IMG/VR virus record: IMGVR_UViG_3300029705_000031
Direction: 5' to 3' (one strand)
Length of the DNA: 64,000 nt
Origin: a virus
Lineage: Duplodnaviria > Heunggongvirae > Uroviricota > Caudoviricetes
This document shows positions 22,274 through 64,000 of the stretch, in pieces. Each line of letters begins with the position of its first letter. The first letter of the stretch is position 1. Position numbers and translations under genes: made by a program. The notes beneath the pieces are model-generated. The model was not told the DNA's origin. It was given only the letters and a program-made list of their open reading frames with translations, and searched no databases.

Positions 22274-22666
22274 ATGACTAATAATCCAAATGAAATCATT
22301 GAAGAGTATGAAGCTAAAGAACAGATTTCTGACAAACAGAAGAAAAAGAAACCTAAGACTAAGAAAGCCGATCACAAACATGTATATGATAAGTATGTGA
22401 TAAAAGAAGAAAAATTAGAAACATTATTTGGTAGCTATACATTGTATAAGGACAAAACACAGTTTAGTATATATAAGAAATGTTCTGTATGTGGAAAACT
22501 TATTCATGAAAATCTACCACAGTATATAGAAGATGATTTAGCTAATACTTTTGAAAAGAATTCAAAAAAATGGAAGTATTTTTATTTCTGTATTAGTAAT
22601 AGAGATGAAGTAGAGTATATAGAAAAGAATTATCCTGAAATTGAAATTTGTTATCTTGAAAAATAA
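22274..22666 (+). CDS. hypothetical protein (130 aa)
   Basis: ORF. Confidence 0.4.
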   Translation: MTNNPNEIIEEYEAKEQISDKQKKKKPKTKKADHKHVYDKYVIKEEKLETLFGSYTLYKDKTQFSIYKKCSVCGKLIHENLPQYIEDDLANTFEKNSKKWKYFYFCISNRDEVEYIEKNYPEIEICYLEK

Positions 22667-32336: not shown

Positions 32337-33866
32337 ATGGCGACTAAAAAGAATCTAACATATAACGAAGATAGTATTAAAGTCCAAGAATATCCTGATA
32401 ATGTAAGATCTAATCCTACAGTCTATATCAGTAGTCTTGGTAAAGAAGGTAATACGCATCTACTAAGAGAAGTAATTGATAACTCTATTGATGAATTCCT
32501 AAATGGTTTTGGTAAAACAATTACAATTGAAATTTCCAATAAAAAAGGTGTATTTAGAGTAATTGATGAAGGTCGTGGTGTTCCTCCTAAATCTATTGAA
32601 AGAGCATTTACTACATTACATGCTTCAGGTAAATTCGATAAAGATAGTTATAGCACATCAGGTGGTCAGCATGGTCTTGGTAGTACATGTGTTAATGCAC
32701 TTAGTAAGTATTTCCTTGTCATTACACATGAAGGTGGTCATGAATACTCTCAAAGATTTGAATATGGTAAGAAAGTAACTGAACTAAAAGATTTAGGAAA
32801 GTCTGATAAGGTAGGTACTATTGTAGAGTTTTGTCCTGATGAATCTGTAATGGATACATTTGAGATTGACATTGAATCAGTCAAAGATGAATGTAAGATG
32901 AAGTCTTTTATCAATAAAGGACTTACTATCATTATTAAGGACATGGATGAAAAGAAACAGGCTAAGTATTATCATAAAGATGGTATTGAGGAATACGTAC
33001 AGTTAAATGCTAAGAAAGCTCTATTTAATCCTATTACATTCTCTACATCAACTACTGTTAACAAGGCTAATAAAGAATTGAATGTAGAAATCGATTGTTC
33101 CTTTACTTATGATAACTCTACTGATCCTATCAATATTAAATCCTTCTGTAATTCCATTTATACTAGTGATGGCGGTACTCATGAAACTGGTTTTAAAACA
33201 GCTCTTACTAGTTTGATTAAAAAGTATATTGCTGATAATAACCTACTAACTAAAAAAGATGCAAATCTAGACATTACTGGTGATTCAGTTCAGGAAGGTG
33301 TAGTAGCAGTAGTATCTATCAAACATCCTCATCCGATGTATGATCAGCAGTCTAAGAAAAAGCTTAACTCTACAGAAGTTTCTGGTGCAGTAATGAAAGC
33401 AGTTAATGCAGAATTTAGTAAGTGGATTGAAACCCATGCTAAAGAAATGAAAGTACTTTGTACTAAAGTAATTGAATCTGCAAAGGCTAACAGTGCTGCT
33501 AAGAGAGCTAAAGAACTAGCTAATAAGAAATCTGAAAATGGAATTACTGCTGTTTCTGATCTATCAAAATTAGCTAACTGTATTTCTAAGAAACCTGAAG
33601 AATGTGAACTGTTTGTAGTTGAGGGTAATTCTGCAAGTTCAAGTGCTAGAAATGGTAGAGATAAGCAAACTCAGGCTGTTTATGCTCTAAGAGGTAAGAT
33701 TCTCAATACTAACAATCTAGCTGAAACTAAGATTTTTGAAAATAAGGAACTATCAGATTTGATTTATATCTTAACTGGTAAGAAAACTGCAATTGGTAAG
33801 AATTTCAATGTTGAAGACATGAAGTATCATAAACTGGTAGCCTTGACTGATGCTGACGATGACGGT
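32337..33866 (+). CDS. type IIA DNA topoisomerase ATPase subunit (GyrB/T4 gp39-like), exon 1 (GHKL ATPase + transducer + first half of Toprim, ends ...LTDADDDG)
   Basis: GHKL motifs EVIDNSIDE, IDEGRGVP, GGQHGLGSTCVNALS; Toprim VEGNSASSSARNGRDKQTQAVYALRGKILN; ORF stops 3 codons after DADDDG where GyrB continues SHIRTLLLTFFYR. Confidence 0.85.
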
Positions 33867-35157
33867 AAATGACACATTAAGTCTGCATCAGTGAGAAATT
33901 TTCTAACAATACATTAGTATTAATGTTAGGAGGTTTCATTCAAATGAAAAATGAAAAAGAAACTAAAGAAAGATATGCTTCTGGTATTGAAAATTGTAAA
34001 AAACAAGCTCAAAATCTTAAACAAAAAGCATCTGAAAAATTTTTAAGTAAAGTTTACGAACAAGTTGGTGATGATTATACTTTTCTGGAAACTTATGTAA
34101 CGAGTAAAACTAAACTCTGGGTAATACATAATGTTTGTGGACATAAGTATAGAGTAACTCCAAATGAGTTTACTTCTCATAAAAGACGTTGTCCAAACTG
34201 TGCAAATAAAAAAAGAGTACTTAATACTGGAATAAAACCTCATACATTAGAATCTATTATTGAAAGTGTAAAAGAATTATCTAATGACGAATATGAGGTA
34301 GTTAGTAATGAGTATGAAAATAATAAAGAAAAAATTTGGGTTAGACATAAAACATGTAGTTATTCATACCTTGTTCGTTATAATGACTTTCAGCAAGGAT
34401 ATAGATGTCCTTTATGTGCTGACATGAATAAAAGTCAGAATAATTCTAAACCAATACAGGATATTAAAAGTGTTCTAGATTTTAATAAAATTGAGTATGA
34501 ATCAGAAGTGTCATTTGAAGAATGTGTAGACAAACGTTTTCTTCCATTTGATATATTGGTTTATACTGATAAAGTCAATGATGAATACTTTTTAATTGAG
34601 TATGATGGACAACAACATTCTGATCCTAATGCACAATTTGGAGGAACTAAAGAAGAAAGACTTATTAGATTTGAGCTAACTCAAAAACATGACACTATAA
34701 AAAATGCTTTTTGTGAAGAAAACAGTATAAAACTTTATAGAATTTCTTATAAAGAAGATTTGATGAGCAAACTAAGAAGTATATTGGAAGAAAATAATCT
34801 AATTTGACTTGCAGTGAATGCCGTCTAAAAACCTAGTTAACTGCGGGAAACTATCAATAAACACTATTTACTAAACTAAGATAGTAATATACTTAGTGGC
34901 AATGGGTAACTCCAAAGATATAGTAAAAAGAATAGTGTTTGATACAATCGACGCAACGAAGTATCCTACATTTAGTAAAAGATAGGATATGAGTTCAACG
35001 ACTATCGAAACCAACTAACTTAATGTTAGTAATAAGGTAAGTTGAAATACTTACACGAAGGGAGTAGAGTAGGGAAATGTAAATTACAAAGTACCGAAAA
35101 GCTAGGCTATACTAATTTAGTATAGAAAATATAGTCTAAATTATGCAAAGTAATTTG
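33867..35157 (+). mobile_element. group I self-splicing intron (ORF in P1 loop) interrupting the GyrB-like gene inside the Toprim DxDxD motif
   Basis: IGS gccgtc (34818..34823) complementary to exon end gacggu with U.G at the splice site; P-like element aactgcgggaaa (34840..34851); R element gttcaacgactatcgaaacc (34993..35012); S element aaaatatagtc (35127..35137) giving P7 gacta/tagtc; omega-G 35157; exon 2 restores ...HIASLILGFVYRH. Confidence 0.8.
33923..34807 (+). CDS. intron-encoded putative homing endonuclease: three CxxH/CxxC zinc-finger-like repeats + C-terminal Vsr/DUF559-like (EDxHD-type PD-(D/E)xK) nuclease domain
   Basis: repeats CGHKYRVTPNEFTSHKRRCPNCA, CSYSYLVRYNDFQQGYRCPLCA; C-terminal FDILVYTD...LIEYDGQQHSD...RLIRF pattern typical of Vsr-like nucleases; AGGAGG RBS. 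Confidence 0.5.
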   Translation: MLGGFIQMKNEKETKERYASGIENCKKQAQNLKQKASEKFLSKVYEQVGDDYTFLETYVTSKTKLWVIHNVCGHKYRVTPNEFTSHKRRCPNCANKKRVLNTGIKPHTLESIIESVKELSNDEYEVVSNEYENNKEKIWVRHKTCSYSYLVRYNDFQQGYRCPLCADMNKSQNNSKPIQDIKSVLDFNKIEYESEVSFEECVDKRFLPFDILVYTDKVNDEYFLIEYDGQQHSDPNAQFGGTKEERLIRFELTQKHDTIKNAFCEENSIKLYRISYKEDLMSKLRSILEENNLI

Positions 35158-35982
35158 CTTCACATTGCAAGCCTTATCTTAGGATTTGTATATAGACATG
35201 CTAAACCCATTTTGGAAAAAGGTTACATGTATATTGCAATGCCTCCTCTTTATTCTATCATTGAAAGAAATAAGAAACGTTATTTCTTAAATCAAGAGGA
35301 ATATGATGCATATATTGAGGAAAAGATTTTTGAAAACTATGTATTTAGTTGTAATGAGATAGGTTTAAATAAGACTAAAGCTAAAACCATTCTTAAGAAT
35401 TTTGAAACTTACAAAAACAAAGTAAGTGAACTATCTACTAGTACAGGTATCAATATGTATTTAATTGATGATGTATGTGATTATTTACGTACTAATGAAA
35501 ATGCAACAAGTAAGGATATTGTGAATTTATTAAAACAGATTGGTGATTTTGAATTCTTTAAGAATGATGAAGGAAATTCTGAGATTAATGGTCTTTATGA
35601 TAATAGCTTTGTAAATGCAGTAATTAAGGATTTAGTAAAGTCTGCTAAAAAAGCTAAGAAGATTCTAGAAGATCTTAGTATTCCTGAAGAAGTATTCATC
35701 AATGATTATCATCTATCAATTAAGAACTATCAAGACATGTATAACAAGGTTACACCTAAGTCCAGAAGTCGATTCAAAGGCTTGGGAGAAATGGATGCTA
35801 ATGAACTTTGGGAAACTACTCTTGATCCTTCAGTTAGAAACATTATGCAAGTTGTACTATCAGATGAAGAAAAGACAGATGATACTATGGATACACTACT
35901 AAATTCTAATAGTAAGTATGCAGACAAACGTAAAGTATTCTTAATGAAAAATCAGCAAAAGATTAAGGAATTAGAAATCTAA
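35158..35982 (+). CDS. type IIA topoisomerase ATPase subunit (GyrB-like), exon 2 (rest of Toprim and C-terminal domain)
   Basis: HIASLILGFVYRHAKPILEKGYMYIAMPPLY aligns with GyrB HIRTLLLTFFYRxMxxLIExGxVYIAQPPLY; exact 3' splice site +/- a few nt. Confidence 0.8.
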   Translation, partial: LHIASLILGFVYRHAKPILEKGYMYIAMPPLYSIIERNKKRYFLNQEEYDAYIEEKIFENYVFSCNEIGLNKTKAKTILKNFETYKNKVSELSTSTGINMYLIDDVCDYLRTNENATSKDIVNLLKQIGDFEFFKNDEGNSEINGLYDNSFVNAVIKDLVKSAKKAKKILEDLSIPEEVFINDYHLSIKNYQDMYNKVTPKSRSRFKGLGEMDANELWETTLDPSVRNIMQVVLSDEEKTDDTMDTLLNSNSKYADKRKVFLMKNQQKIKELEI

Positions 35983-35991
35983 CTAATACAA

Positions 35992-36027
35992 AAAGAAAGT
36001 ATCTTATTTTAGATACTTTCTTTTTTT
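35992..36027 (+). terminator. rho-independent terminator
   Basis: aaagaaagtatct / agatactttcttt + T-run. Confidence 0.7.
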
Positions 36028-36089
36028 GTTTTAATAGGATTTATAACATTTCTATAATGAAAACTATTTTTAAGGAGTGAAATTACTAT

Positions 36090-37076: not shown

Positions 37077-37334
37077 ATGGAAAGCTTAAAGAATGTAATA
37101 GAAAATGAGCATATTTTTATAGTAGAAGTTGAAGAAGTTTTACAAAAGTTAGTTGCTATTAAAGCAGATAGTAAAGAAGAAGCATTAAAAAGAGCTAAAG
37201 AAAAATACAAAAATTGTGAACTTATCTTAAATGAAGAGGATTTTAAAGAAACTAGCTTTAAGATTTATGAATACAATGATCCTAGAGAAATCATAGAACT
37301 AGTAATCACAGCTTTAGCTAATAGAACTTGTTAG
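37077..37334 (+). CDS. hypothetical protein (85 aa)
   Basis: ORF with GGAGAG RBS. Confidence 0.4.
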   Translation: MESLKNVIENEHIFIVEVEEVLQKLVAIKADSKEEALKRAKEKYKNCELILNEEDFKETSFKIYEYNDPREIIELVITALANRTC

Positions 37335-38377
37335 AAAGGACTAATGATGAAATGACTATTGAAGAAATCAAAAATATGGTTAATGGTGAATCATACGATT
37401 TTCTAAGAACTAATCCACATCTTAAGGATAGAATCATTTTTCTTACATTAGGTGGTAGCTATGCCTATGGTACAAATAATGAAAATTCAGATGTAGATGT
37501 TCGTGGTTGTGCTCTTAATAGTGTTAATGATATCCTCGGTATGTCAAATTTTGAACAGGTAGTAAATACAACAACAGATACGACAATCTATAGTTTTAAT
37601 AAATTGATTAAACTCTTAATCAGCTGCAATCCTAACACCATTGAATTACTTGGTTGTAAACCAGAACACTATTTTTACATTACAGATATTGGTAAAGAAC
37701 TAATAGACAATAGAAAAATTTTTCTTTCTAAAAAAGCAGTTGAGGATTCTTTTGGTGGATATGCAACTCAGCAGCTTCGTCGTTTAGAAAATGCAATAGC
37801 TAGAGATAAACTATCACAGGAAGATAATGAAAGACACATTAGAAATTCCATGCAAAGATCTTTAAATCACTTTATTGATAAATATGGAATTTCTGATGGT
37901 AATGGTGTTGAACTCTTTATAGATAAAAGTAATCGTGATGATTTAGATTGTGAAATTTTCTGTAAGATTTACCTTGACAAAATTCCAGCAAGAGATTTTA
38001 CTGTTATGTTAAACTCTCTATCAAATGTAATTAGTAGTTATGGAAAACTAAATCATAGAAATCATAAGAAAGATGATGCACATCTTAATAAACATGCAAT
38101 GCATCTAATTAGACTGTATCTAATGGCTATTGACATTCTAGAAAAAGAAGAGATCAATACTTATAGAGAAAATGATATAGAATTTCTATTAAGTATTCGT
38201 AATGGAAGATATCAAAATGAAGATGGTACTTACCATAAAGATTTCTTTGATATTGTATCTGATTATGAAAAACGTTTAGTATATGCTAAAGAAAATTCTA
38301 GTCTTCCTATGGAGCCAAATATGGAACTTATTGAAGAATTTACAATAGATGTAAATAGGAGGTCATTAGATGTATAA
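37328..38377 (+). CDS. Pol-beta-superfamily nucleotidyltransferase (349 aa), translationally coupled to CCA-adding enzyme
   Basis: hG[GS]x9-13Dh[DE]h signature LGGSYAYGTNNENSDVDVRG near N-terminus; 8-nt overlap with next gene. Confidence 0.5.
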   Translation: MLERTNDEMTIEEIKNMVNGESYDFLRTNPHLKDRIIFLTLGGSYAYGTNNENSDVDVRGCALNSVNDILGMSNFEQVVNTTTDTTIYSFNKLIKLLISCNPNTIELLGCKPEHYFYITDIGKELIDNRKIFLSKKAVEDSFGGYATQQLRRLENAIARDKLSQEDNERHIRNSMQRSLNHFIDKYGISDGNGVELFIDKSNRDDLDCEIFCKIYLDKIPARDFTVMLNSLSNVISSYGKLNHRNHKKDDAHLNKHAMHLIRLYLMAIDILEKEEINTYRENDIEFLLSIRNGRYQNEDGTYHKDFFDIVSDYEKRLVYAKENSSLPMEPNMELIEEFTIDVNRRSLDV

Positions 38378-39713
38378 TGTCTCTTTCAATATTCCAGATA
38401 ATGTGAATGTTATCTTAGATACTTTACATGATAATGGATATGAAGCATATATAGTCGGTGGATGTGTTAGAGATAGTCTGTTAGGATTACAACCAAAAGA
38501 TTGGGATATTTGTACTTCAGCACTTCCACCACAAATACTAGAAGTTTTTAATGATAAGCGTATAATTGAAACAGGTTTAAAACATGGAACAGTTACTATA
38601 GTTCTAGATGACGAACAGTATGAGATTACAACATATCGTACTGATGGAAACTATTCTGATAATCGACATCCAGATTCAGTAACATTTGTTAGTAACCTTA
38701 AAGAAGATCTTGCAAGAAGAGATTTTACTATAAACGCTATGGCTTATAACAAACAAGATGGTTTGATTGACTATTTTAATGGTTATAAGGATTTAAAGAA
38801 TGGTATAATTTCTTGTGTTGGAGATGCTAATGAACGTTTTAATGAAGATGCGTTACGTATTATGAGAGCTTTACGTTTTTCTTCTAGATATGAAATTCCA
38901 ATTGCAGAATCCACACAAGAAGCTATTCATAAAAATAAGGATTTACTTAAAAATATTGCCATTGAACGCATTAATAGCGAATTATGTAAATTGTTACTTG
39001 GTTATGGTGGATCCTATATTTTAGCAAACTATAAAGATGTGATTACAACTATTATTCCAGAATTAAAACCTTGTATTGGATTTAATCAAAATAATCGTTA
39101 TCATGAATACGATGTTTATGATCATATCAGACATGCAGTATACAATTATGGAGGTTCGGATTTAGTAGTAATTATATCACTCTTACTTCATGATATTGGC
39201 AAACCTCATTGTTATACTGAAGACTGTAACGGAGGACATTTTTATGGTCATGGAGTAGTAAGTCATGATATAGCAGAGAAAGTATTAGACAATTTAAGAT
39301 TTGATAATAAAACAAAACATGATGTTCTTGAATTAGTATTATACCATGATTCAACTATTGAACCAACACCAAAAACAGTACGTAGATGGTTAAATAAAAT
39401 TGGTGAAAAACAATTTTTAAGACTTCTTGATATTCGTGAAGCAGATATGTTAGCACACTCCAAAGATACACAGAAGTCTAGATTAGAAAGAAATGATAAA
39501 CTTAGAAAAATTTTAGCTGAAATAATCCAATCTAATCAATGTTTTACTATAAAGGACTTAGCAATTAATGGTAAAGACATTATTGCTATGGGTGTACCTG
39601 AAGGTAAACGTATAGGTGAAATACTAAATACAGTCCTTAATGAAGTTATTAATGAAACTATTGTAAATGAAAGAAAATTTTTATTAGATTACGTATATTA
39701 TAATCTAGTATAG
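38370..39713 (+). CDS. cca: tRNA nucleotidyltransferase (CCA-adding enzyme/poly(A) polymerase family) with HD domain
   Basis: IVGGCVRDSLLGLQPKDWDICT, RRDFTINAMAY head-domain motifs and LLLHDIGKP HD motif. Confidence 0.8.
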   Translation: MYNVSFNIPDNVNVILDTLHDNGYEAYIVGGCVRDSLLGLQPKDWDICTSALPPQILEVFNDKRIIETGLKHGTVTIVLDDEQYEITTYRTDGNYSDNRHPDSVTFVSNLKEDLARRDFTINAMAYNKQDGLIDYFNGYKDLKNGIISCVGDANERFNEDALRIMRALRFSSRYEIPIAESTQEAIHKNKDLLKNIAIERINSELCKLLLGYGGSYILANYKDVITTIIPELKPCIGFNQNNRYHEYDVYDHIRHAVYNYGGSDLVVIISLLLHDIGKPHCYTEDCNGGHFYGHGVVSHDIAEKVLDNLRFDNKTKHDVLELVLYHDSTIEPTPKTVRRWLNKIGEKQFLRLLDIREADMLAHSKDTQKSRLERNDKLRKILAEIIQSNQCFTIKDLAINGKDIIAMGVPEGKRIGEILNTVLNEVINETIVNERKFLLDYVYYNLV

Positions 39714-39727
39714 AAGGAGAACACATA

Positions 39728-42700
39728 ATGGCACAGAATGTAATTCAAAAGGATATTGTTGATATTCAAAAAGACAATATGCTTCAGTATATGATGTCTC
39801 TAATGTATGATAGAGCGATTCCTGATATTAGAGATGGATTAAAACCAGTACAGAAATTTATCCTTTGGAGTTGTTACAGTTCAGGTTTCTTTCCAAATAA
39901 ACCCCATGTAAAGTGTGCTAAGATTGCTGGTGATGTTATTGCTAACTTCCATCCACATTCACTAGATGCAGCTTATGAAGCATTGTGTAGACTTGCTCAG
40001 ACTCATTCTATGAATATTCCATTAATTGATTTTCATGGTGCATGTGGTTCTATTGATGGATCAGGCGCAGCAGCTCATAGATATTGTGTGACTGGTGATA
40101 CCTTAATTAGTCTACCAAATGGTAAATTAAAAAGAATTGATGAACTAATTGAAAATTCTAATGATGATTCAACTATGGATGTAGATTTTGAAGTATTAGA
40201 TTTTAAAAATAATCCAGTACATGTTTCTAAATTCTTTAATTCTGGAAAACATGATATAATCAAGATTAAAACCAGTTCTGGTTGTACTATTAGAGGTAGT
40301 TATAATCATCCTATCTTGTGTTTATATAAAAATCCTACTGATGGTCTACCAGAATTCAGATGGACAACTTTAGATAAAATTGAAACTGGATGTTATGCTG
40401 TTATAGCATCTAAATTCAATAATTCTTTTAATGAAACTATAAGTGAAGAAGAAAAGCTTAAAGCAATTTTCTTTGGTGGAATGGTTTCTGAAGGAGGTTT
40501 ATCTAAAAATCAGAGATACTATAGAGTAAGTTTCTCCAATCAAGATAATGAATACTATAATCTAGTGGAATCTGGATATAAAGTATATCTTGAAGAGAAT
40601 AATCTAAGTAATTTGAATATTCGTATTAATCCAAATGCTCGTGGTGGAGTTAAAGAATTTTGTACTGAAGACAAAAATCTTCATAATTTAGTTAAAGAAC
40701 AAATTGGTGAAGATGCTCATAATAAACAGATTCCTCCCTATGTTCTAAACTCTAATTTAGAAATTCAAAGATGGTTTTTAAAGGCACTTTTTGAAGGAGA
40801 TGGAGGAGTAACATGTCGTTTAGATAAAAGAAGAAAAGATAATGTTACTGGACATGTATTTTATTCTACTTCTTCAACAAAACTTTTGAATGAATTAAAA
40901 ATTCTATTAATGAATTTTGGTATTAGAACTAAAGTTACTAAAGACAGATCTAATTTTAAACTTACAATTTATTCTTTAACTGACATGAAAATTTTTAAAG
41001 AAAAAATAGGATTTTTAAGTGATAGAAAAAATAAAGTATTGAATGAATTAGTAGAAAATAAAGAAATACAAATTACTAAGTCTTATGGTGTTTCTTCTTC
41101 AGATAAAATTCCATATCTTGCCGAATTCATTAGAAATAATAAACTTAGAAATACACATTATTTAAAGTCTCATAGCCTAAATTGTAAACAAGATATAGAT
41201 AAACATAATGATGTAATTAAAGATTCTTTGAGTTATGAAGAATATTTTAAGCTTATGAGAAAACTTGAAGTTTTAGATTTATACCATTATGAAGAAATTA
41301 TTGAAGTTGAAAGACTACCAGAAGAAGTAGTATATTCAATTAAAGTAGATTCTAATGATCATAGTTTTATTAGTAATGGTTTTATTAGTCATAATACTGA
41401 GGCAAAACTTAGTAAATATGGATTAGATATTCTTAGTGAAATCGATAAGGATGCTGTTGATTTTGAAAAGAACTATGATGTAACTAAAGATCAACCAACT
41501 GTTTTACCTGCAGTAATTCCTAATATCCTATTGAATTCTTCAATGGGTATTGCAGGTGGTTATGCTTCTTCAATTCCTCCACATAACATCAAGGATGTAT
41601 GTAATACTGTATGTGAACTAATTGATAATCCTAATATGTCAGTTCAAGATGTAGCTAAGAAACTAGTTCCTGACTTTCCTACAGGTGGTATCTTATGTTC
41701 TAAGAAGGAAATTGAAAAAGCTTACATTACTGGTCAGGGTTCAGTAAAACTAAGAGGTAGAGCAACTATCAATAGAAATAAGAATAACACATCAGAAATT
41801 GTTATTACTGAAATTCCATTTATGACTACAATTGGTCCTCGTATGAGTGGCACATCTACTAATACTGAGGGTGGTTTGATTAATTCCATTGTAGCTAAGA
41901 TTAAAGATGGTACAATTGATGGAATTAAGGATATTCACGATATTTCTGATAAGAATGGTCTATGTATTAAAGTTTTTATCAAGAAAGATTATGACCCTGA
42001 TGTTATTCTAAATCAGTTATACAAGTTCACTCAGTTAGAATCTACTTTTAAGATCATTCTAGTTTGTAAGAATGGTAATTTCTTTAAGGTTTATAACATC
42101 AAGGAAATTCTAACTGAATGGATTGAATTCCGTGTATCTACTATTAGACGTATCATTACACATGATATCAAGAAAGCTAAGTATCGTGAACATATTCTAG
42201 AAGGTCTATTAAAAGCATTAACTGATATCGATACTGTTATTAGTATCATTAAGAAAGCTAATGGAAGAGCTGATGCTAAAGTAAAGTTAGTTAGGAAATA
42301 TGGATTTACTGATTTACAGGTTGAAGCTATTCTTGACATGAAACTTTCTCAGTTAAACTCTCTAGATGGAAAGAAGCTAGAAGAAGAAAAACTAAGTAAG
42401 CAAAAAGAAATTCTAGAACTAAAAGAGAATTGGAAAGAATCCAATATCTATGAAAGAATTAAGAAAGAACAGAAAGAATTTGCTAAAAAATATGGTAGTG
42501 AAAGAAAGACTACTGTAGAAGAGATTGATACTGATATTACTACTGAAGACATTATTGCTGATGAAGATACTTTGATTGTCATTACTCAGGGTAATTACAT
42601 TAAGCGTATTTCAAATGAGTTTAGAACTCAGAAACGTGGTACTCAGGGTATTTCTATTGGTGATAACTCTATCACAGAAATGTTCTCTGCTTCTACTAAG

Positions 42701-43543
42701 GATCATCTACTATGTTTTACTAATACTGCCAGAGTCTATGATTTAAAAGCTTATGACATTAAAGAATCTAAGGATCTTAAAGCTAAGGGTTTAAGAATTG
42801 AAAATTATCTAAATCTAAAAGAAAATGAAACAGTTACTAACATTCTATGTATCAATAATACACAGATGAATGATAATGAATCCTTCCTAGTTTTCGCTAC
42901 TAAGAATGGTATGATTAAGAAAACTAAGTTAGAAGAATTCAATAACATTCGTTCTACTGGTATTATTGCTTTGATGTTAAAGTCTGGTGATGAACTAGTT
43001 TCTGTAAAGTATATTGATACTAGTAAACCTATGCAAGATATCTTGATTTCTACTAAAAATGCTCAGACAGTTAGATATGATCATGAAGAAATCAAAGAAT
43101 TAGGTAGAAATACCTATGGTGTAATTGGTATTAATCTAGAAAATGATGACCGTATTACAGATATGTGTATCATTGAAGATGACGAACAACTAATCTTCTT
43201 TGCTACTAAAAATGGTTTAGGTAAAACTATTCGTATTACTGATAATGTAGAAAAAGTTGATCCCAATACTAAAGAAAAAGTAATCATCAATGATGGTTTT
43301 CCTAGACTAAAACGCTCATCCAACATTAAAGGCAGACTATGCATGAAACTAAAAGAAAATGACGAATTAGTTTCAATGGTAGCTATCAATAATGTAAATG
43401 ACGAACTAATGATTGTTACTGATAGCAAACTATTAGTAGTCAATACTGAAGAATTCAAAGAACCTTTAAAGAGACCTACTTATGGTAAGAAATTAGTTAG
43501 TTTGACTAATGAAGACTATGTAAGAAAGGTGATTCTAAAGTGA
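39728..43543 (+). CDS. type IIA topoisomerase DNA breakage-reunion subunit (GyrA/ParC-like; precursor containing an intein)
   Basis: N-terminal GyrA blocks HPHSLDAAYEALCRLAQ and AAAHRY(active-site Tyr)...TEAKLSKYG split by intein; C-terminal beta-pinwheel-like repeats. Confidence 0.85.
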   Translation: MAQNVIQKDIVDIQKDNMLQYMMSLMYDRAIPDIRDGLKPVQKFILWSCYSSGFFPNKPHVKCAKIAGDVIANFHPHSLDAAYEALCRLAQTHSMNIPLIDFHGACGSIDGSGAAAHRYCVTGDTLISLPNGKLKRIDELIENSNDDSTMDVDFEVLDFKNNPVHVSKFFNSGKHDIIKIKTSSGCTIRGSYNHPILCLYKNPTDGLPEFRWTTLDKIETGCYAVIASKFNNSFNETISEEEKLKAIFFGGMVSEGGLSKNQRYYRVSFSNQDNEYYNLVESGYKVYLEENNLSNLNIRINPNARGGVKEFCTEDKNLHNLVKEQIGEDAHNKQIPPYVLNSNLEIQRWFLKALFEGDGGVTCRLDKRRKDNVTGHVFYSTSSTKLLNELKILLMNFGIRTKVTKDRSNFKLTIYSLTDMKIFKEKIGFLSDRKNKVLNELVENKEIQITKSYGVSSSDKIPYLAEFIRNNKLRNTHYLKSHSLNCKQDIDKHNDVIKDSLSYEEYFKLMRKLEVLDLYHYEEIIEVERLPEEVVYSIKVDSNDHSFISNGFISHNTEAKLSKYGLDILSEIDKDAVDFEKNYDVTKDQPTVLPAVIPNILLNSSMGIAGGYASSIPPHNIKDVCNTVCELIDNPNMSVQDVAKKLVPDFPTGGILCSKKEIEKAYITGQGSVKLRGRATINRNKNNTSEIVITEIPFMTTIGPRMSGTSTNTEGGLINSIVAKIKDGTIDGIKDIHDISDKNGLCIKVFIKKDYDPDVILNQLYKFTQLESTFKIILVCKNGNFFKVYNIKEILTEWIEFRVSTIRRIITHDIKKAKYREHILEGLLKALTDIDTVISIIKKANGRADAKVKLVRKYGFTDLQVEAILDMKLSQLNSLDGKKLEEEKLSKQKEILELKENWKESNIYERIKKEQKEFAKKYGSERKTTVEEIDTDITTEDIIADEDTLIVITQGNYIKRISNEFRTQKRGTQGISIGDNSITEMFSASTKDHLLCFTNTARVYDLKAYDIKESKDLKAKGLRIENYLNLKENETVTNILCINNTQMNDNESFLVFATKNGMIKKTKLEEFNNIRSTGIIALMLKSGDELVSVKYIDTSKPMQDILISTKNAQTVRYDHEEIKELGRNTYGVIGINLENDDRITDMCIIEDDEQLIFFATKNGLGKTIRITDNVEKVDPNTKEKVIINDGFPRLKRSSNIKGRLCMKLKENDELVSMVAINNVNDELMIVTDSKLLVVNTEEFKEPLKRPTYGKKLVSLTNEDYVRKVILK
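40085..41395 (+). mobile_element. intein (437 aa) with LAGLIDADG homing-endonuclease domain, inserted immediately after the catalytic tyrosine codon of the GyrA-like gene
   Basis: block A CVTGDTLISL, block B GSYNHPIL (TxxH), two LAGLIDADG motifs AIFFGGMVSEGG and FLKALFEGDGGV, block G VYSIKVD...ISHN followed by +1 Thr (TEAKL); removal restores AAAHRY-TEAKLSKYG. Confidence 0.9.
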
Positions 43544-44774: not shown

Positions 44775-44869
44775 CTTATAACTATAAAAAGTAAAAATTT
44801 TTATAAATATATTTAATAATTCTGTAAACAAAATACTACAACACAACTAATCAAAAAGGAGACAAAATC

Positions 44870-45033
44870 ATGAAGTATTCAGAATTGGTCGATCAGGTAT
44901 TCGTAACTTCGGTGGCAGGTGTTGTACCTTATATCGAAGGACATGCTGGTGTTGGTAAGTCGCAGATGATTAGAGACGTAGCAAATCTCTATCGTGAAAA
45001 AGGATTTGAGGAAGTACCTATCGTTACCTTATT
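44870..45033 (+). CDS. MoxR-type AAA+ ATPase (AAA_5 family), exon 1 with Walker A
   Basis: Walker A EGHAGVGKSQ; ORF ends 10 codons past proposed junction; exon end ccttattc pairs with intron IGS gaataagg (45945..45952). Confidence 0.7.
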
Positions 45034-46217
45034 CGGTGCGCTACTAAAAGAGGGAGAGCTTAACTAAAGGTTACAATTCTTTAATAAAGGGGATGTTTTT
45101 ATGAGAGTAAAAACAAAACCTAATGTTGATGTTGGAGTTACTTTCACAAATAACGATGGTTTAGATTTTATAGTAGATGAGATAGTAGAAATAAAAAAGT
45201 ATGAAAAAATGTGTAAAATCACATTTTTAGAAAGTGGATATTCAGCTATAGTTGGTAGTAGTTCTATAACAAAAGGAAGTGTTAAAGATTACTATCAGAT
45301 AACTATTCTTGGTGTTGCTTGTTTTGGTGATGCTAAAACAAATCCAAGGCATACTAAGCAAACATATAGAATTTATAAAAACATGTTACATCGTTGCTAT
45401 GATGAAAAAAACAAAGACTATAATTCATATGGTGGTATTGGTGTTTCTGTTTGTTCTAATTGGTTGAACTATAACAATTTTCTAAATGACCTTTATGATA
45501 TTGAAGGATTTGATTTTGAAAAATTTGAAAATGGTGAAATTAGTATGGACAAAGATAAGAAACAAAAATACATTCCTAAGAATGAAAGAATTTATAGCAA
45601 GGAAACATGTTGTTTCATATCTACTAGTGAAAATTCTACTATAAGAAATTTCGAAAATAGTCTAAATCCAGAAAAAAGAAAAATTCTTATAACCTATCCA
45701 GATGGTAATACTGAAACAATAGATAGAACAGAATTAAAAATCTATTGTGAAAAAAAGGGTTTTACAAATCCAAACCATATTAGAAGAGTTTTAAGAAAAG
45801 AACGTAATTCTTACAAAAACATTAAATTTGAACTTGTAGACTAATGGGTTCTTCATTAACAAACCTCATGAACTTAAGGTAAGATCTTAAGGTGTGTTAC
45901 TTATCGTATTAAGTAATGCTAACGGTATCAGTGGAATAAGGATAGTTTACTATCACGAAGCAGCTGACTAAGAGACTCTACGGTCCAGAAATGGATAGCA
46001 GACAATACCGTGCCAAGCTTCTCAAAAGAGATGAAGGTGTACAGACTATCGAAACCAACTAGTTTTAAACTAGTAATAAGGTAAGTTGAAATACTTACAC
46101 GAAGGGAGTAGAGTAGGATAAACAATCCGAAGGATGAGGATCTAGATTGTTTCTAGATAAAAGATAGTCGAAAAATCACATAGAAATATGGTAGTGAAAA
46201 CTACATGATTTTTGCGG
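45034..46217 (+). mobile_element. group I self-splicing intron interrupting the MoxR-like ATPase gene (splice boundaries approximate, +/- 5 nt)
   Basis: IGS-like gaataagg following cagtg as in intron 1; R element gtgtacagactatcgaaacc (46036..46055), S element aaaagatagtcg (~46160..46171); ~75 nt core 46044..46117 near-identical to 35000..35073 of intron 1 with compensatory stem change (ctaac/gttag vs ctag/ctag); no canonical U.G at 5' splice site identified. Confidence 0.7.
45101..45844 (+). CDS. intron-encoded protein (247 aa), probable homing endonuclease/DNA-binding protein with conserved YxIYxxMxxRCY...YGGIGVxVCxxW motif
   Basis: located wholly inside intron; motif recurrent in phage intron/HEG-associated proteins; no clear HNH or GIY-YIG catalytic signature found. 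Confidence 0.35.
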   Translation: MRVKTKPNVDVGVTFTNNDGLDFIVDEIVEIKKYEKMCKITFLESGYSAIVGSSSITKGSVKDYYQITILGVACFGDAKTNPRHTKQTYRIYKNMLHRCYDEKNKDYNSYGGIGVSVCSNWLNYNNFLNDLYDIEGFDFEKFENGEISMDKDKKQKYIPKNERIYSKETCCFISTSENSTIRNFENSLNPEKRKILITYPDGNTETIDRTELKIYCEKKGFTNPNHIRRVLRKERNSYKNIKFELVD

Positions 46218-47199
46218 TGGTATTCCCGTTCCTAGACGTGATGAAAATAGCAAGAAAATGATCAACGATTACACTACACATGTTAAAATGCAGCAGATTT
46301 TGGATAATGATACTAGAGGTATCAACACAATCCTCTTTATTGACGAGCTAAATAGATGTGAAGCAGCAGTGAATCAGGAACTCATGCAGTTGATTCTTGA
46401 CCGTAGAATCAATGAAACGATTCTTCCTGATTCTTGTATTATTGTTGCAGCAGGTAACCCTGAGTATGACGATGATAACGACTATCAGGTTCAGGTTATG
46501 AACGACGCCATGAAGAATCGGTTTGTTAAGTATACACTTGAAGCTGATGTAAAGGACTGGCTTAAGTGGGCATCTAACACAAAGGATGATAACAAAACTG
46601 GTACAGAAGCAATTGATTCTGACGTAATTGAGTTTATTGCAGAAATGCCTAATCTACTTCACGATCCTCATAGTAAAGAAGACATCAAGCCCACTCCTAG
46701 AGGTTGGGAACTTCTTTCTAAGGTAATGAGACAGATTAAGAATTACTATCCTGAAGATTTTGAAAGTATGTTGTTTGAAGCAGCAAAGGGTGTAGTTGGT
46801 CAGACTCCTGCAACCCAGCTAATTGGTTTCCTGAGAGATAAGAAGAATCCTATTACTTCTACTAAGGATATTTTCAAGTCTTCTGATAAGGAATTTAACA
46901 ATAACGTACTTAACAAGATTAAGGGTGATACATCCACTAGACAGTTCGTTATCATTGATCGTTGCATTCGTTACATTAGCGAAAACATTAAGGAATTCAA
47001 TGATAAGAAGACTGGTGAAAATAGCTGTAAGAGATTCATTGAAGTATGTAAGGTACTTCCCAAGGACATCATGGTTGGCGTTCTAAAGAACATTGGTGTT
47101 AATCATAAGAATATTCATGATACTTTTACTAAGTATGATGACTATATGGATCTATTCTTTGATACCAATAAGAAGACTATGACTGCGGCAAACATCTAA
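46218..47199 (+). CDS. MoxR-type AAA+ ATPase, exon 2 (Walker B, sensor and AAA lid)
   Basis: ILFIDELNRCEAAVNQELMQLILDRR...IIVAAGNPEYDDDNDYQV...AMKNRF = classic AAA_5/MoxR Walker B-sensor blocks; in-frame extension upstream of first ATG back to 46198. Confidence 0.75.
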
Positions 47200-47318: not shown

Positions 47319-48488
47319 TTGACTGATAAAGAATTGGAATTTGTAAAAAAGTTTCTAGATTTTAAAGAAGCTACTGAAAACAGTTACTACTATGATCGTT
47401 ATATAACACCAAGTGATGTTATGAAGTTTTTACAACCAGATGCAAGAAGAAACTATAAAGATGCTTGTAACATACTTTCTTATGAAGATAGAATAGATTT
47501 AGCAAAAATCTATCTAGAAAGAATAGTAAGTATGACATTTAGTAACAATTTTGGTTACTATAAAAATAGTCATAATAGTAATAAAGGTTACTATGAAACG
47601 ATGTTATCCAATAGTGGAATTGACTGTTATGTTGATGTAGCTAAAACAAATGAAGAAGGTTTTCCATTAGAGTTCAACAAGAAAAATGAGAACTTTTTCT
47701 ATATCTTCTTAGATGGTCTCTATAAGTATTGGGATAAGCAGTTAGAATACTATAAAAACAATCAACAAGAAGCTGTAGAGATTATGTTTGAATCTCAATG
47801 TAATGGTACTTGGTTTTACTATAACCATTTCAACTATAACTTCCTAAAAGTATATCTAGAATATCTGAAATCTAGAGGATTTAAGATTAACATCTTTGAG
47901 CTTTTCAATAAGAAACTCAAAAGAGTTATAAAAAGTATGGATAAAGGTTTAGCACATTATACTAAATCTTATCTATTTGAAAGTTTAGCTATAATCTTTG
48001 ATTTCTATAATGCTATTCTAGATATCTATGGAGAAGATAATGAAAAAGTAATCAATAAGCTACAGAACAATCTAATCACTATTTTCAAAGATGAAATAGA
48101 AACTGAGAAATTTGGTTTCATGAATACTTTCTTATACACAAAGAGGTGGACTAACAATAGTAAGAATAGAAGTTCTGAATCAACTAGTGATGTAGTTCAT
48201 TTCTGGGAGTATGTTTACAATAATGAACTAAATCCTACTTTAAAACGTATCTTCTTGAATGCAATAATTCATACTTGGAATAAGTCACCTATTCCAAAAG
48301 TAAGAAACTCAATGCAGTTACTAGTGGATTTAGCAACTTATAAATATGATGGAAGATCAGGATTTCCATACCATAATCAAAGATTGTTCTATAATGACAT
48401 AATTGCAAATGCAAACATGCTAAAGAAATCTGTTAAATCTATACTATTTTCTAAAGCAATTCTAGAAGAAGGAGGTTTATTTCTATAA
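47319..48488 (+). CDS. hypothetical protein (389 aa), TTG start, between MoxR ATPase and VWA genes
   Basis: ORF with AAAGGAG RBS; stop overlaps next start (TAATG). Confidence 0.5.
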   Translation: MTDKELEFVKKFLDFKEATENSYYYDRYITPSDVMKFLQPDARRNYKDACNILSYEDRIDLAKIYLERIVSMTFSNNFGYYKNSHNSNKGYYETMLSNSGIDCYVDVAKTNEEGFPLEFNKKNENFFYIFLDGLYKYWDKQLEYYKNNQQEAVEIMFESQCNGTWFYYNHFNYNFLKVYLEYLKSRGFKINIFELFNKKLKRVIKSMDKGLAHYTKSYLFESLAIIFDFYNAILDIYGEDNEKVINKLQNNLITIFKDEIETEKFGFMNTFLYTKRWTNNSKNRSSESTSDVVHFWEYVYNNELNPTLKRIFLNAIIHTWNKSPIPKVRNSMQLLVDLATYKYDGRSGFPYHNQRLFYNDIIANANMLKKSVKSILFSKAILEEGGLFL

Positions 48489-49984
48489 TGGCAGCTAAAG
48501 TTAGTACTAAGAATACTAGTTTAGAAGACATGAATGTAGAAGAACTTAAGAAAAGATGCTTAGAATGTGTTAACAACAAGGATCTTAATACTGCAACAAG
48601 ATACTTTAAAGAGTACATTGAATTGATCATCTTCAATCTATTGATTTCAGATCACTTCTTTGGTACTTTCATTATCCATATGCAAAGAGAAATTCGTTAT
48701 GATTTCTATGCACCTGCAGGTGTAACTATCAAAAAAGGTTCTCCATTATTGGTAATAAATCCTGCTCTACTACTAAGATATACTCATAAAGAAGTTAAAG
48801 CTATTCTAAAACATGAGGTTTATCATCTACTTCATTTCCATCTTCTAAGAAGTAAAGAGAATAACAATCGTTTTGATAGCTATATTGAGAATATCGTTAT
48901 GGACGTTGCTATCAACCAGTTCATTCCAGAAATTCCTGATGAATGTGTTACGTTTGACAATTTCTGTAAACAGTTTAAACTAGATCCTTACAGAGTATCT
49001 CGTAAAGAATCTTTTGAGTATTACTTAGAACTAGTAAAGAATAGTGATGTATACAAAAAAGATTCTGAACAGTATAAGCAAATGATGAAGGATATTCAGG
49101 ATATTCTTGATCAGCTTAATGAAAGTATGGGTCAGAATGGTAATGGTTCTGGTAGTGGCTCTGGATCTGGTGATGGTAAAAATGGTAAAGCTTCTGGAAA
49201 TGGTTCTGGAAATGGTGGAAAATCCATTCAGGAAATGTTAGATGAAATTCTAGATAAGAAATATCCTATTGATCATTCTATCTGGAAAGAATCTGATAGT
49301 TCCGATGTTCAGAACATCAAGGAGATCGTTAAGCATATGGTAAATGAAGCAATCAAGAATTGTGGTAATGTACCTGGCGATCTACAAGAGCTAATCAATA
49401 AGATTAATGAACCTACTATCATTAAGTGGCAGGATGAACTAAAGAGACTTGTTGGTTCTGTTAAGTGTCCTTATAAACTTACTCCTCTAAGAAGACCTAG
49501 AAGACAGCCTGATAGAATGGATCTTAAGGGTAAAATGTCTGATAGAAAAGTTAAAATCGCAGTTGCTATTGATACTTCTGGTTCTATGGGTGAAAGAGAA
49601 CTTCAGTTTGTATTCTCTGAAATCTTTAAGATTCTAGAATTGGTTAAGTTTGAAATGACAATCATTGAATGTGATTATAACGTACAGAGAGTTTATAAGG
49701 CTAAGAACCTGCAAGAAGTTGACATGAATGTCAAGGGACGTGGAGGTACAGCATTTACACCTGTCTTCAAATATCTTAAGGAAGAAATGCGTCAACAAGA
49801 TAAACCTGACTTACTGGTTTATTTCACTGACGGATGGGGCGAGTCTTGTCTTGACGAAAAGTATCATATTAGTAGTAGTACCAAACTAATGTGGGTATTA
49901 ACAGGACGTAAGAAAGATTTATCATGTTCTGGACATGGTGCTTGGACTAATAAGATCAAAGAACTTAAGATGAACGAAAGATAA
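48488..49984 (+). CDS. VWA-domain protein with N-terminal putative metallopeptidase-like (HExxH) domain; typical partner of MoxR ATPases (DUF2201-like architecture)
   Basis: HEVYHLLH motif; MIDAS motif KIAVAIDTSGSMG; Gly/Ser-rich linker; gene order MoxR-x-VWA. Confidence 0.6.
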   Translation: MAAKVSTKNTSLEDMNVEELKKRCLECVNNKDLNTATRYFKEYIELIIFNLLISDHFFGTFIIHMQREIRYDFYAPAGVTIKKGSPLLVINPALLLRYTHKEVKAILKHEVYHLLHFHLLRSKENNNRFDSYIENIVMDVAINQFIPEIPDECVTFDNFCKQFKLDPYRVSRKESFEYYLELVKNSDVYKKDSEQYKQMMKDIQDILDQLNESMGQNGNGSGSGSGSGDGKNGKASGNGSGNGGKSIQEMLDEILDKKYPIDHSIWKESDSSDVQNIKEIVKHMVNEAIKNCGNVPGDLQELINKINEPTIIKWQDELKRLVGSVKCPYKLTPLRRPRRQPDRMDLKGKMSDRKVKIAVAIDTSGSMGERELQFVFSEIFKILELVKFEMTIIECDYNVQRVYKAKNLQEVDMNVKGRGGTAFTPVFKYLKEEMRQQDKPDLLVYFTDGWGESCLDEKYHISSSTKLMWVLTGRKKDLSCSGHGAWTNKIKELKMNER

Positions 49985-63150: not shown

Positions 63151-63957
63151 TTAATAGTTAGCTAGGGTAGGTTGAGCATTTACAGAAATAGTACCACCAG
63201 TACTATAAGTATATAGAGTTCTAGCAACTAAATTAGTAGTTTTAATACTTACAGAACTTCCACTATCAACAATAATACCATCAACAACTTCATTATTACC
63301 ACCAGTAATGGTATCTATATACATCTGAGATAACTCAGATACTTTAACTGCTGTAATGGCACTATTAACATTGATAATACCTTTGCTAATAAAAGTACTA
63401 GCTTCTTTTAGTTCAATACCAGTATCAGTACTATTAATAGTAATTGTATATCCACTATCAAAAACAACAGCACTGTCAGTAATAGTTATACTATTAGCAG
63501 TTAAGTGTATTCCATTAAACTTTACAGAAACACTGTAAGAAATGGATAAATTATTGATAGTGATATCATAATTATCTCCACTAAAAATAATAGAACCACC
63601 AAAGAAACCAGTTACATTAACGACTTCATTATAAGTTCCATTATCTATAAAGGTAATATATGCATTATTACCATTTAAATTTTTAGGAATTACACTTAAA
63701 GCCTTATTAATAGTAGCATAAGGAGCATCCTTACTACCATCTCCAGTTTCATCATTACCAGATATACCTACATAAATAGTTGCATCTACTAATAGATTAG
63801 GACTTTTTGAACTAACTATATTGTTTATGCTACTATTGTTATTATTACTATTTTCTTTAGTAACAAACCAAACAACTTCACTACCAGAAGGAGCCTCACT
63901 ACCAACATGAACTTCAGGAGGACTAATGTTATTTTCTAAAGCAGTATATATACCGCT
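63151..63957 (-). CDS. tailspike-like protein, 5'-truncated (no start codon; reading frame runs into the terminal palindrome); N-terminal region has pectin-lyase-fold signature GDGSKDAPYATINKAL
   Basis: in-frame translation from stop at 63151..63153 up to an in-frame stop created inside the palindrome at 63958..63960; no ATG/GTG/TTG after that stop. Confidence 0.5.
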   Translation of the reverse strand, partial: SGIYTALENNISPPEVHVGSEAPSGSEVVWFVTKENSNNNNSSINNIVSSKSPNLLVDATIYVGISGNDETGDGSKDAPYATINKALSVIPKNLNGNNAYITFIDNGTYNEVVNVTGFFGGSIIFSGDNYDITINNLSISYSVSVKFNGIHLTANSITITDSAVVFDSGYTITINSTDTGIELKEASTFISKGIINVNSAITAVKVSELSQMYIDTITGGNNEVVDGIIVDSGSSVSIKTTNLVARTLYTYSTGGTISVNAQPTLANY

Positions 63958-64000
63958 TTAGAAAATAACATTAGTCCTCCTGAAGTTCATGTTGGTAGTG
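63897..64000. repeat. 104-nt near-perfect palindrome (48-bp arms, central gtatatatac also self-complementary; single a/c central mismatch) abutting the window end
   Basis: reverse complement of 63953..64000 equals 63897..63944 exactly. Confidence 0.9.

Follow-up and report, generated by a model that had tools for sequence, protein, structure and literature searches.

Group I introns of the IA2 type that carry homing endonucleases are classical residents of phages. The sequence described here, a stretch of 64,000 nucleotides (the window) from a virus (Caudoviricetes; IMG/VR record IMGVR_UViG_3300029705_000031), contains a 74-nt block twice, once in an intron of a GyrB-like topoisomerase gene (intron A) and once in an intron of an AAA ATPase gene (intron B). 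Both are very probably group I self-splicing introns of the IA2 (T4 td/Twort) type that have one structural module in common. Features lie on the plus strand unless stated otherwise.

The td intron of T4 shows, in its 3' half (sequence verified against T4, 100% over 149 nt), the same order of elements as introns A and B: AACGACUAUC, a short P7.1, GAGUAG, P7.2, GAAACG followed by P3', P8 and AGAUAUAGUC. The blocks common to td and A/B (AACGACUAUC, GAGUAG, GAAA(C/A)G and (A/G)AUAUAGUC) are short and were noted by eye, and a BLAST search with the block did not list T4. However, P7.1 of td is a single short hairpin (UCCC-UUUG-GGGA), whereas P7.1 of A and B is a three-way junction of about 65 nt that includes two hairpins and an internal loop, CGAAA/GAGUAGA. 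In td, the open reading frame (ORF), which encodes I-TevI, is located in P6a, while those of A and B lie in the P1 loop. Introns A and B are without P2. In all three cases, the mobile intron resides in a phage gene of nucleotide or DNA metabolism. The Twort orf142 introns are presumably of the same IA2 type as td and A/B.

Many introns have been reported in AR9-like and Staphylococcus jumbo phages, with gyrB as a reported target, and CapR/DUF4379 and Vsr-like endonucleases have been reported in introns of AR9/PBS1-like and Staphylococcus jumbo phages (PMC12350094). In the annotation of AR9, the terminase gene consists of five joined pieces; the P7–P7.1 blocks of three of its introns are near-identical, although P7.1 of AR9 contains one long hairpin instead of the two found in A and B. 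The GyrB of the window is only about 37–39% identical to that of the AR9/PBS1-like and Staphylococcus jumbo phages (LY01, MarsHill group), so the window phage belongs to a different lineage.

The DNA polymerase intron of cyanophage Pf-WMP3 is an IA2 intron with P1 to P10 except P2 and an HNH-type endonuclease ORF (PMC3428280). This ORF spans P6a through P7.2, in contrast to the ORFs of A and B, which do not extend beyond the P1 loop. Fungal mitochondrial introns of the IA1 type are known to have ORFs in P1 loops. Finally, co-resident introns of T4 are said to recombine at short conserved core sequences to give chimeric functional introns, as reportedly found by Hall, Liu & Shub in 1989 and by Bryk & Belfort in 1990. 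Domain shuffling in T4 was seen experimentally, whereas an exchange between A and B would be read from mosaic similarity, in a tract with a diverged 9-nt patch.

The repeated block and the P7.1 domain

The two copies of the block, A (35000–35073) and B (46044–46117), are identical at 68 of 74 positions by pairwise alignment. This identity ends sharply, with not one further matching base on either side, and the extension into flanking coding sequence that the first-pass annotation of this DNA, made from its letters alone, had proposed to look for was not found. All six differences (35018, 35019, 35022, 35024, 35025 and 35026) fall within one hairpin (hairpin 1; 35014–35030 in copy A and 46058–46074 in copy B), in agreement with the near-identity apart from one hairpin described in that annotation. 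The pair 35018–35026 changes from A–U in copy A to G–C in copy B and the pair 35019–35025 from C–G to U–A, both being compensatory. Position 35020/35024, a U·U in copy A, is a U–A pair in copy B, and the remaining sixth difference belongs to the loop. According to ViennaRNA, hairpin 1 comprises 6 bp (ACUAAC/GUUAGU) with a 5-nt loop in copy A and, in the same place, 7 bp (ACUAGUU/AACUAGU) with a 3-nt loop in copy B. The paired replacement first described is real, but the stems are slightly longer than originally written.

The 45-mer located 3' of hairpin 1 (35029–35073) occurs exactly twice in the window, which is AT-rich (29% G+C), with zero occurrences expected from 100 dinucleotide-preserving shuffles. 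A covariance model (R1), trained on 17 non-window blocks only, assigns 67.3 bits to copy A and 66.1 bits to copy B, the next match in the window reaching 14.6 bits. Since only two matches stand well above this value in 64 kb, the window holds two copies of the block only; the search for further copies suggested earlier, run over the 64-kb window, returned nothing else above 14.6 bits. A weak pattern match at 7108 and a GGGAGTAGAGTA-like match at 22606 are at chance level and were missed by the covariance model. A megablast search of 50,697 phage records with both loci gave no match.

Four elements make up the block: the 5' strand of P7, the complete branched P7.1 domain, the G-U-A linker and the two bases that open P7.2. 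P7 is the helix that forms the guanosine-binding site. In copy A, the P7 5' strand is GACUAU (35000–35005), and the P7.1 stem is formed by 35005–35012 with 35060–35068 (UCGAAACC/GGGAGUAGA). This stem encloses hairpin 1, the spacer AAUAAG, hairpin 2 (35037–35054; GUAAGU-UGAAAU-ACUUAC) and, after hairpin 2, ACGAA. The G-U-A linker (35069–35071 in copy A, 46113–46115 in copy B) is followed by the GG that starts P7.2. Copy B consists of the same elements, with hairpin 2 at 46081–46098. The label "ribozyme core" initially given to the block is too wide, as the catalytic core accounts for the first six bases only (the P7 strand), the rest being the peripheral P7.1 domain and the linker to P7.2. Hairpin 1 is a peripheral helix, free to vary while its pairing is kept; outside it, the module follows the consensus of one clade of this intron family.

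UC/GA and CC/GG pairs close the P7.1 stem around CGAAA/GAGUAGA, whose strands fit the GAA/AGUA consensus of a bulged-G (sarcin-ricin/loop E-like) motif. This putative motif would account for the invariance of the CGAAA and GAGUAGA strands. Furthermore, the segments from P7 to P7' fold with the same topology in both introns, including P7, hairpin 1, hairpin 2, P7.2 and P8 (z = −2.1 for A, 35000–35137; z = −4.4 for B, 46044–46170).

Covariation was counted in 94 matches aligned to the covariance model, a fitting that favours structure somewhat. The closing pair of P7.1 is paired in 98.9% of these relatives, and GC, GU, AU, CG and UA all occur there. For hairpin 2 the paired fraction is 87%, with both-side changes at all six pairs and GC, CG, UA and AU at each of them. 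Hairpin 1 is 68% paired, its architecture differing by sub-type so that it aligns imperfectly. Covariation scores 0.63, versus 0.19 for shuffles and 0.07–0.09 for slid partners. The reading of the block as RNA structure is strongly supported: the proposal that both stem sides change together is upheld by the two compensatory pairs and by family-wide covariation, and conservation of protein coding is excluded. The similarity is located in non-coding intron RNA.

Placement of the block in two introns

Intron A (1291 nt, 33867–35157; group I, IA2 type) separates two exons of the GyrB-like topoisomerase gene (32337–33866 and 35158–35982), and intron B (1154 nt, 45061–46214; group I) two exons of the AAA ATPase gene (44870–45060 and 46215–47199; PHROG 1297 ATPase, Pfam AAA_5). 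The evidence comes from a related contig of 299 kb, IMGVR_UViG_3300031555_004294, in which both genes are uninterrupted and both sites empty, the exons sharing about 77–82% nucleotide identity with those of the window; the N-terminal part of its GyrB is 89% identical and its ATPase 83% identical. Both insertion sites are therefore polymorphic for intron presence and absence between the window and this contig. The intron-less alleles, together with the group I rules (the exon ends in U and the intron in G), set the junctions. The first-pass annotation was right to place both copies within two group I introns, but the limits it gave (34808–35157 and 45845–46217) cover the ribozyme part only.

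Exon 1 of the GyrB-like gene is a 510-aa ORF with GyrB ATPase, transducer and Toprim domains that ends mid-Toprim at ...DADDDG. The downstream frame opens with ...LHIASLILGFVYRH...PPLY and has the GyrB C-terminal domain at its end, the Toprim domain being severed at the intron A junction (Pfam). The allele in the related contig (locus L233) reads ...DADDDG|LHIASL... without interruption; window positions 32343–33877 and 35161–36034 align to adjoining L233 sequence, and in-silico splicing of intron A yields a continuous ORF of 784 aa. Likewise, the ATPase allele of the same contig (locus L240) reads ...KEGEL|GGIPVP..., window positions 44848–45057 and 46216–47199 align to adjoining L240 sequence, and in-silico splicing of intron B yields a continuous ORF of 391 aa.

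Complementarity between the P1 exon strand and an internal guide sequence (IGS) is found exactly at both allele-defined break points, with a U·G pair at the 5' site. In intron A, the exon strand GACGGU (33861–33866) ends in the 5' splice-site U33866, which coincides with the break in the intron-less allele, and is complementary to the IGS GCCGUC (34820–34825) with a terminal U·G pair. Read from the sequence, GUGAA (34814–34818), adjoining the IGS, is able to form P10 with the first bases of exon 2 (UUCAC within CUUCAC). In intron B, the exon strand GGAGAGCU (45053–45060; splice-site U45060) forms 8 bp with the IGS GGUUCUUC (45847–45854), including the terminal U·G, at a position fixed by L240. 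The last intron base is G in both cases (G35157 and G46214). Other 5' sites for intron B (after T45061 or T45065) and other terminal G residues (46196, 46207 and 46217) clash with the frame arithmetic and with the intron-less allele. It can be observed, in addition, that both introns end in UUUG and that the first exon base is C (AAUUUG|C in A, 35143–35157; UUUUUG|C in B, 46200–46214).

The conserved core (P3/P8, P4–P6 and P7, with the P3–P7 pseudoknot) is present in A and B by computational criteria, namely the Rfam model RF00028 for A and folds. P3 is fully compensated between the introns (CCUAG/CUAGG in A versus CCUCAU/AUGAGG in B) and covaries in B-type relatives. The insertion lies between P7 and P3', the place of P7.1 and P7.2 in introns of subgroup IA. 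IA2 introns are distinguished by the linkage of P7.1 and P7.2 through G-U-A (PMC3428280), and the order P7, P7.1 domain, GUA, P7.2 and P3' is found in both introns.

RF00028 gives a weak full-length match to intron A (34773–35160, 18.8 bits, local E = 0.014, all 253 model positions), aligning P3 CCUAG, P4 UGCGGG, P5, P6, J6/7–P7 GUUCAACGACUA, P3' CUAGG, P8, J8/7–P7' AUAUAGUC and P9. The alignment skips an insertion of about 100 nt that contains P7.1, and it wrongly puts P1/P2 inside the ORF. Several points weigh against the class assignment. The match to A stays below the gathering score of RF00028 (50 bits) and B gives no match; the terminal G35157 of intron A can also pair within the GNRA-capped P9-like hairpin; P10 is weak in intron B (2 bp); and intron B has, between P3 and P4, two hairpins that could not be matched to the standard group I scheme. 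Rfam searches at the gathering threshold returned nothing, and an E-value scan of the whole window returned no further intron-like matches.

Both introns contain an ORF located before the IGS and hence within the P1 loop. The ORF of intron A (294 aa, 33923–34807) extends between the 5' splice site and the IGS and has its likely start at ATG 33944, preceded by the ribosome-binding site AGGAGG. It belongs to PHROG families 559/681/9084/7140 (HNH, homing or intron-encoded endonuclease; best E = 1.5e-53), and Pfam identifies a DUF4379 treble-clef zinc finger and CapR, a domain combination described in 2025, with Vsr-like endonucleases, in phage introns (PMC12350094). Homologues lie directly 5' of ribozymes of the same type at five loci of other contigs (L148, L135, L220, L140 and L093), in the first three at the same position, about 190–210 nt before P7. 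The ORF of intron B (247 aa, 45101–45844), whose stop codon is 2 nt before the IGS, matches PHROG 2081/374/953 "HNH endonuclease" (E = 8e-47) and has no Pfam match. The two ORFs show no mutual similarity and their PHROG families differ. Sequence searches of the PDB with both endonuclease ORFs gave no informative match. The identity of both as homing endonucleases is a family-level annotation (PHROG, Pfam).

In the proposed mechanism, the IGS would pair with the exon end located about 0.8–0.95 kb upstream, across the ORF held in the P1 loop. The P3–P9 core would then fold, and the intron would splice itself out in two transesterifications, which would restore the reading frame. Judged from sequence, the intron-less alleles place removal at these exact junctions, and introns A and B are predicted to be catalytic.

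Origin of the shared module

Outside the block, the two introns have different architectures. In the 5' half of intron A (34832–34999), the P3 5' strand CCUAG (34832–34836) is directly followed by a canonical P4 (UGCGGG), then by a long P5 extension, P6 (UAUCCUA/UAGGAUA) and J6/7 (GAGUUCAAC); its fold has z = −4.1 and P4/P5/P6 topology. In the 5' half of intron B (45847–46043), the P3 5' strand CCUCAU (45864–45869) is followed by two extra hairpins (45873–45891 and 45894–45919, from the fold), P4 (CGGUAU/AUACCG, which resembles P/Q elements) with a different P5 extension, P6 and J6/7. BLAST of one 5' half against the other gave no alignment. P7.2, P3, P8 and P9 differ as well. The 3' core of intron A (35072–35136) contains P7.2 (35072–35095), P3' CUAGG (35102–35106), P8 (35107–35125), J8/7 and P7' AUAGUC (35131–35136), and its tail (35137–35157) is a GNRA-capped P9-like hairpin (GCAAA-GUAA-UUUGC) that precedes the terminal G35157 (omega G), a junction confirmed by L233. 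The 3' part of intron B (46116–46214) contains P7.2 GGAU-AAACA-AUCC (46116–46128), P3' AUGAGG (46134–46139), P8 (46140–46158), P7' GAUAGUC (46163–46169) and two GAAA-capped hairpins (46179–46190 and 46191–46204), with omega G46214 at the junction given by L240.

The relatives of the two 5' halves are different. That of intron A (taken as 34808–34999) matches introns of L107, L140, L093/L136, L220 and L148 at 70–76% and has no match to B, and that of intron B matches only parts of L175, L225, L163, L158 and L166. B-type 5' halves elsewhere carry other P7.1 modules. An exact 41-mer of the block (AATAAGGTAAGTTGAAATACTTACACGAAGGGAGTAGAGTA) is present in four other IMG/VR contigs and in one contig of a metagenome-assembled genome; what these loci have in common with the window is limited to the intron and its endonuclease. 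An exact 45-mer with window-specific flanks had no match in IMG/VR. Intron pairs were compared by BLAST bit scores, because global identity (cut-off 0.55) is uninformative where unrelated AT-rich members reach about 0.6. Among the module-bearing introns retrieved with the motif, A, L140, L220 and L187-1512 are related and make up the first group of 5' halves, L134 and L135 have an ORF directly 5' of P7 and no comparable 5' half, and B stands alone.

These data suggest that group I introns of one phage genome, unrelated in other respects, may have exchanged or homogenised their P7–P7.1 module, as a case of concerted evolution of a ribozyme sub-domain; we give this reading about an even chance. 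Given the unrelated architectures and endonucleases outside the module, the sharing is best accounted for by a P7.1 module common to both, which recombination most likely carried between introns. Homologous recombination at conserved sequences (P7/J7.1 and GAGUAGAGUA) would bring about the exchange, and drift in the unconstrained hairpin 1 would have come afterwards. Intron B would then be a chimera of a B-type 5' half and an A-type P7.1 module. Consistent with exchange, L093, L122 and L135/L187 harbour co-resident introns with identical hairpin 2 and unrelated 5' halves. Two considerations weigh against recombination: its case rests on a limited, motif-selected sample, and six changes crowded into 9 nt, while the other 59 nt have none, would equally fit strong selection on a vertically inherited module.

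A recent duplication or transposition of the whole intron within this genome, suggested by the first-pass annotation, would make the block the part that has not yet diverged. The modules of A and B are indeed mutually closest (92% identity versus at most 87% to any database copy), and they alone have short linkers around hairpin 1. However, the abrupt end of identity at both block edges, the 5' halves of different architecture that BLAST could not align, the differing P7.2, P3, P8 and P9, the dissimilar endonucleases from different PHROG families and the closer similarity of the A 5' half to introns of other phages (72–76% for L140, L220, L093 and L107) than to B make this very improbable; with the 41-mer present in other contigs, whole-intron duplication is rejected. 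The alternative origin offered with it, a shared intron lineage, applies to the P7.1 module but not to the 5' halves, 3' parts and endonucleases. That the repeat is a duplicated stretch of coding or regulatory DNA (such as a promoter, a terminator or a small RNA) with no relation to intron structure is a negligible prospect. No support for it was found, a 65-aa minus-strand ORF overlapping copy B only and no ORF spanning both copies. The intron-less alleles lack the segments in which the block lies, its helices covary in the 94 relatives, it is always followed by P7.2, P3', P8 and P7' in the relatives retrieved, and no other Rfam family matches.

Vertical descent alone is a more serious contender, possible although on balance doubtful. 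A and B would then belong to one old clade in which P7.1 is under very strong sequence-level selection (for instance through tertiary contacts of the UGAAAU loop), the rest having diverged or been replaced without recombination. The 41-mer is perfect in introns of other contigs whose 5' halves are only 70–85% identical to that of A, and all differences between A and B concentrate in hairpin 1, the most variable hairpin family-wide, as such descent would have it. However, the stem of hairpin 2 varies across the family, so its perfect identity across different P4–P6 architectures is unexpected; B-type 5' halves with other P7.1 modules argue in the same direction; and hairpin 2 is identical in co-resident introns of four of the six multi-intron contigs, as compared with 1.5% of between-contig pairs.

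Several other phage contigs (L093, L122, L135/L187, L002, which is the AR9 terminase, L090 and L110) have two to four introns each, with identical or nearly identical P7–P7.1 blocks; 5' halves were compared in the first three and are unrelated. In L122, the common part of the co-resident introns reaches through the 3' half.

The wider intron family, neighbouring genes and significance

The motif GACTATCGAAA-N30–60-GAGTAGAGTA was found in more than 119 IMG/VR stretches, and its two-hairpin form in more than 118, among the matches listed. Over 200 loci of metagenomic phages contain this motif. BLAST of the region against phage records gave matches that span exactly the block, with 72–78% identity and at several places per genome, in Staphylococcus jumbo phage LY01, the Bacillus jumbo phages AR9/PBS1/Internexus and Listeria phage LPJP1, the AR9 match falling in its terminase gene.

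The layout of intron B, P3-(U)GAA-hairpin-GUG-hairpin-CUAA-CGGUA, recurs in L225, L163, L175, L166 and L158 with covarying P3/P3', and this double-hairpin arrangement between P3 and P4 may define a structural sub-type. The P5 extension of intron B (45935–45960) repeats the AAUAAG-hairpin-ACGAAG module of the P7.1 domain (GGAAUAAG-GAUAGUUUACUAUC-ACGAAGC), as do those of relatives, and looks like a reusable junction motif. In the B-type relatives L244, L246, L175 (second copy) and L243 (second copy), the ORF comes after P6 (GCCAAGCTTC...), not in the P1 loop, so the position of the ORF is not fixed within the ribozyme lineage.

The source genome is jumbo-phage-like. A GyrA-like subunit (39728–43543, 1271 aa) harbours an intein between two DNA_topoisoIV parts (Pfam Intein_splicing, residues 127–556; LAGLIDADG_3, residues 346–428). 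A gyrA intein has been reported for Staphylococcus jumbo phage MarsHill. With intron A in the GyrB-like gene, both topoisomerase subunits have been invaded by mobile elements. Two adjacent nucleotidyltransferase genes (37328–39713; PHROG 388 and PHROG 2244 "tRNA nucleotidyltransferase") are situated between gyrB and gyrA. The intron-split AAA ATPase gene is followed by a 389-aa ORF without family match (47319–48488) and by a gene for a 498-aa protein with a DUF2201 VWA-like and a putative metallopeptidase domain (48488–49984); the ATPase and this VWA-like protein look like a MoxR-type ATPase/VWA gene pair. The best sub-threshold Rfam match in the window (mir-3140; 63913–63983, minus strand; 35.7 bits, E = 0.003) almost certainly represents no more than a long hairpin, possibly a terminator.

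Removal of the introns restores two seemingly truncated genes, turning four ORF fragments into two genes plus two endonuclease genes. Introns A and B add to a known type of phage intron, in which their branched P7.1, P1-loop ORFs, failure to be detected by RF00028 and mosaic sharing of P7.1 are noteworthy. RF00028 misses an abundant phage intron family, of which the motif GACTATCGAAA...GAGTAGAGTA or a small covariance model finds hundreds of copies, and either could improve intron calling in phage metagenomes. The mosaic similarity would provide natural examples of domain swapping by co-resident introns, as in T4, and represents an increment to known biology. If the exchange is true, deletion or exon shuffling would also find a substrate in the two copies, which form 74-bp direct repeats at a distance of 11 kb.

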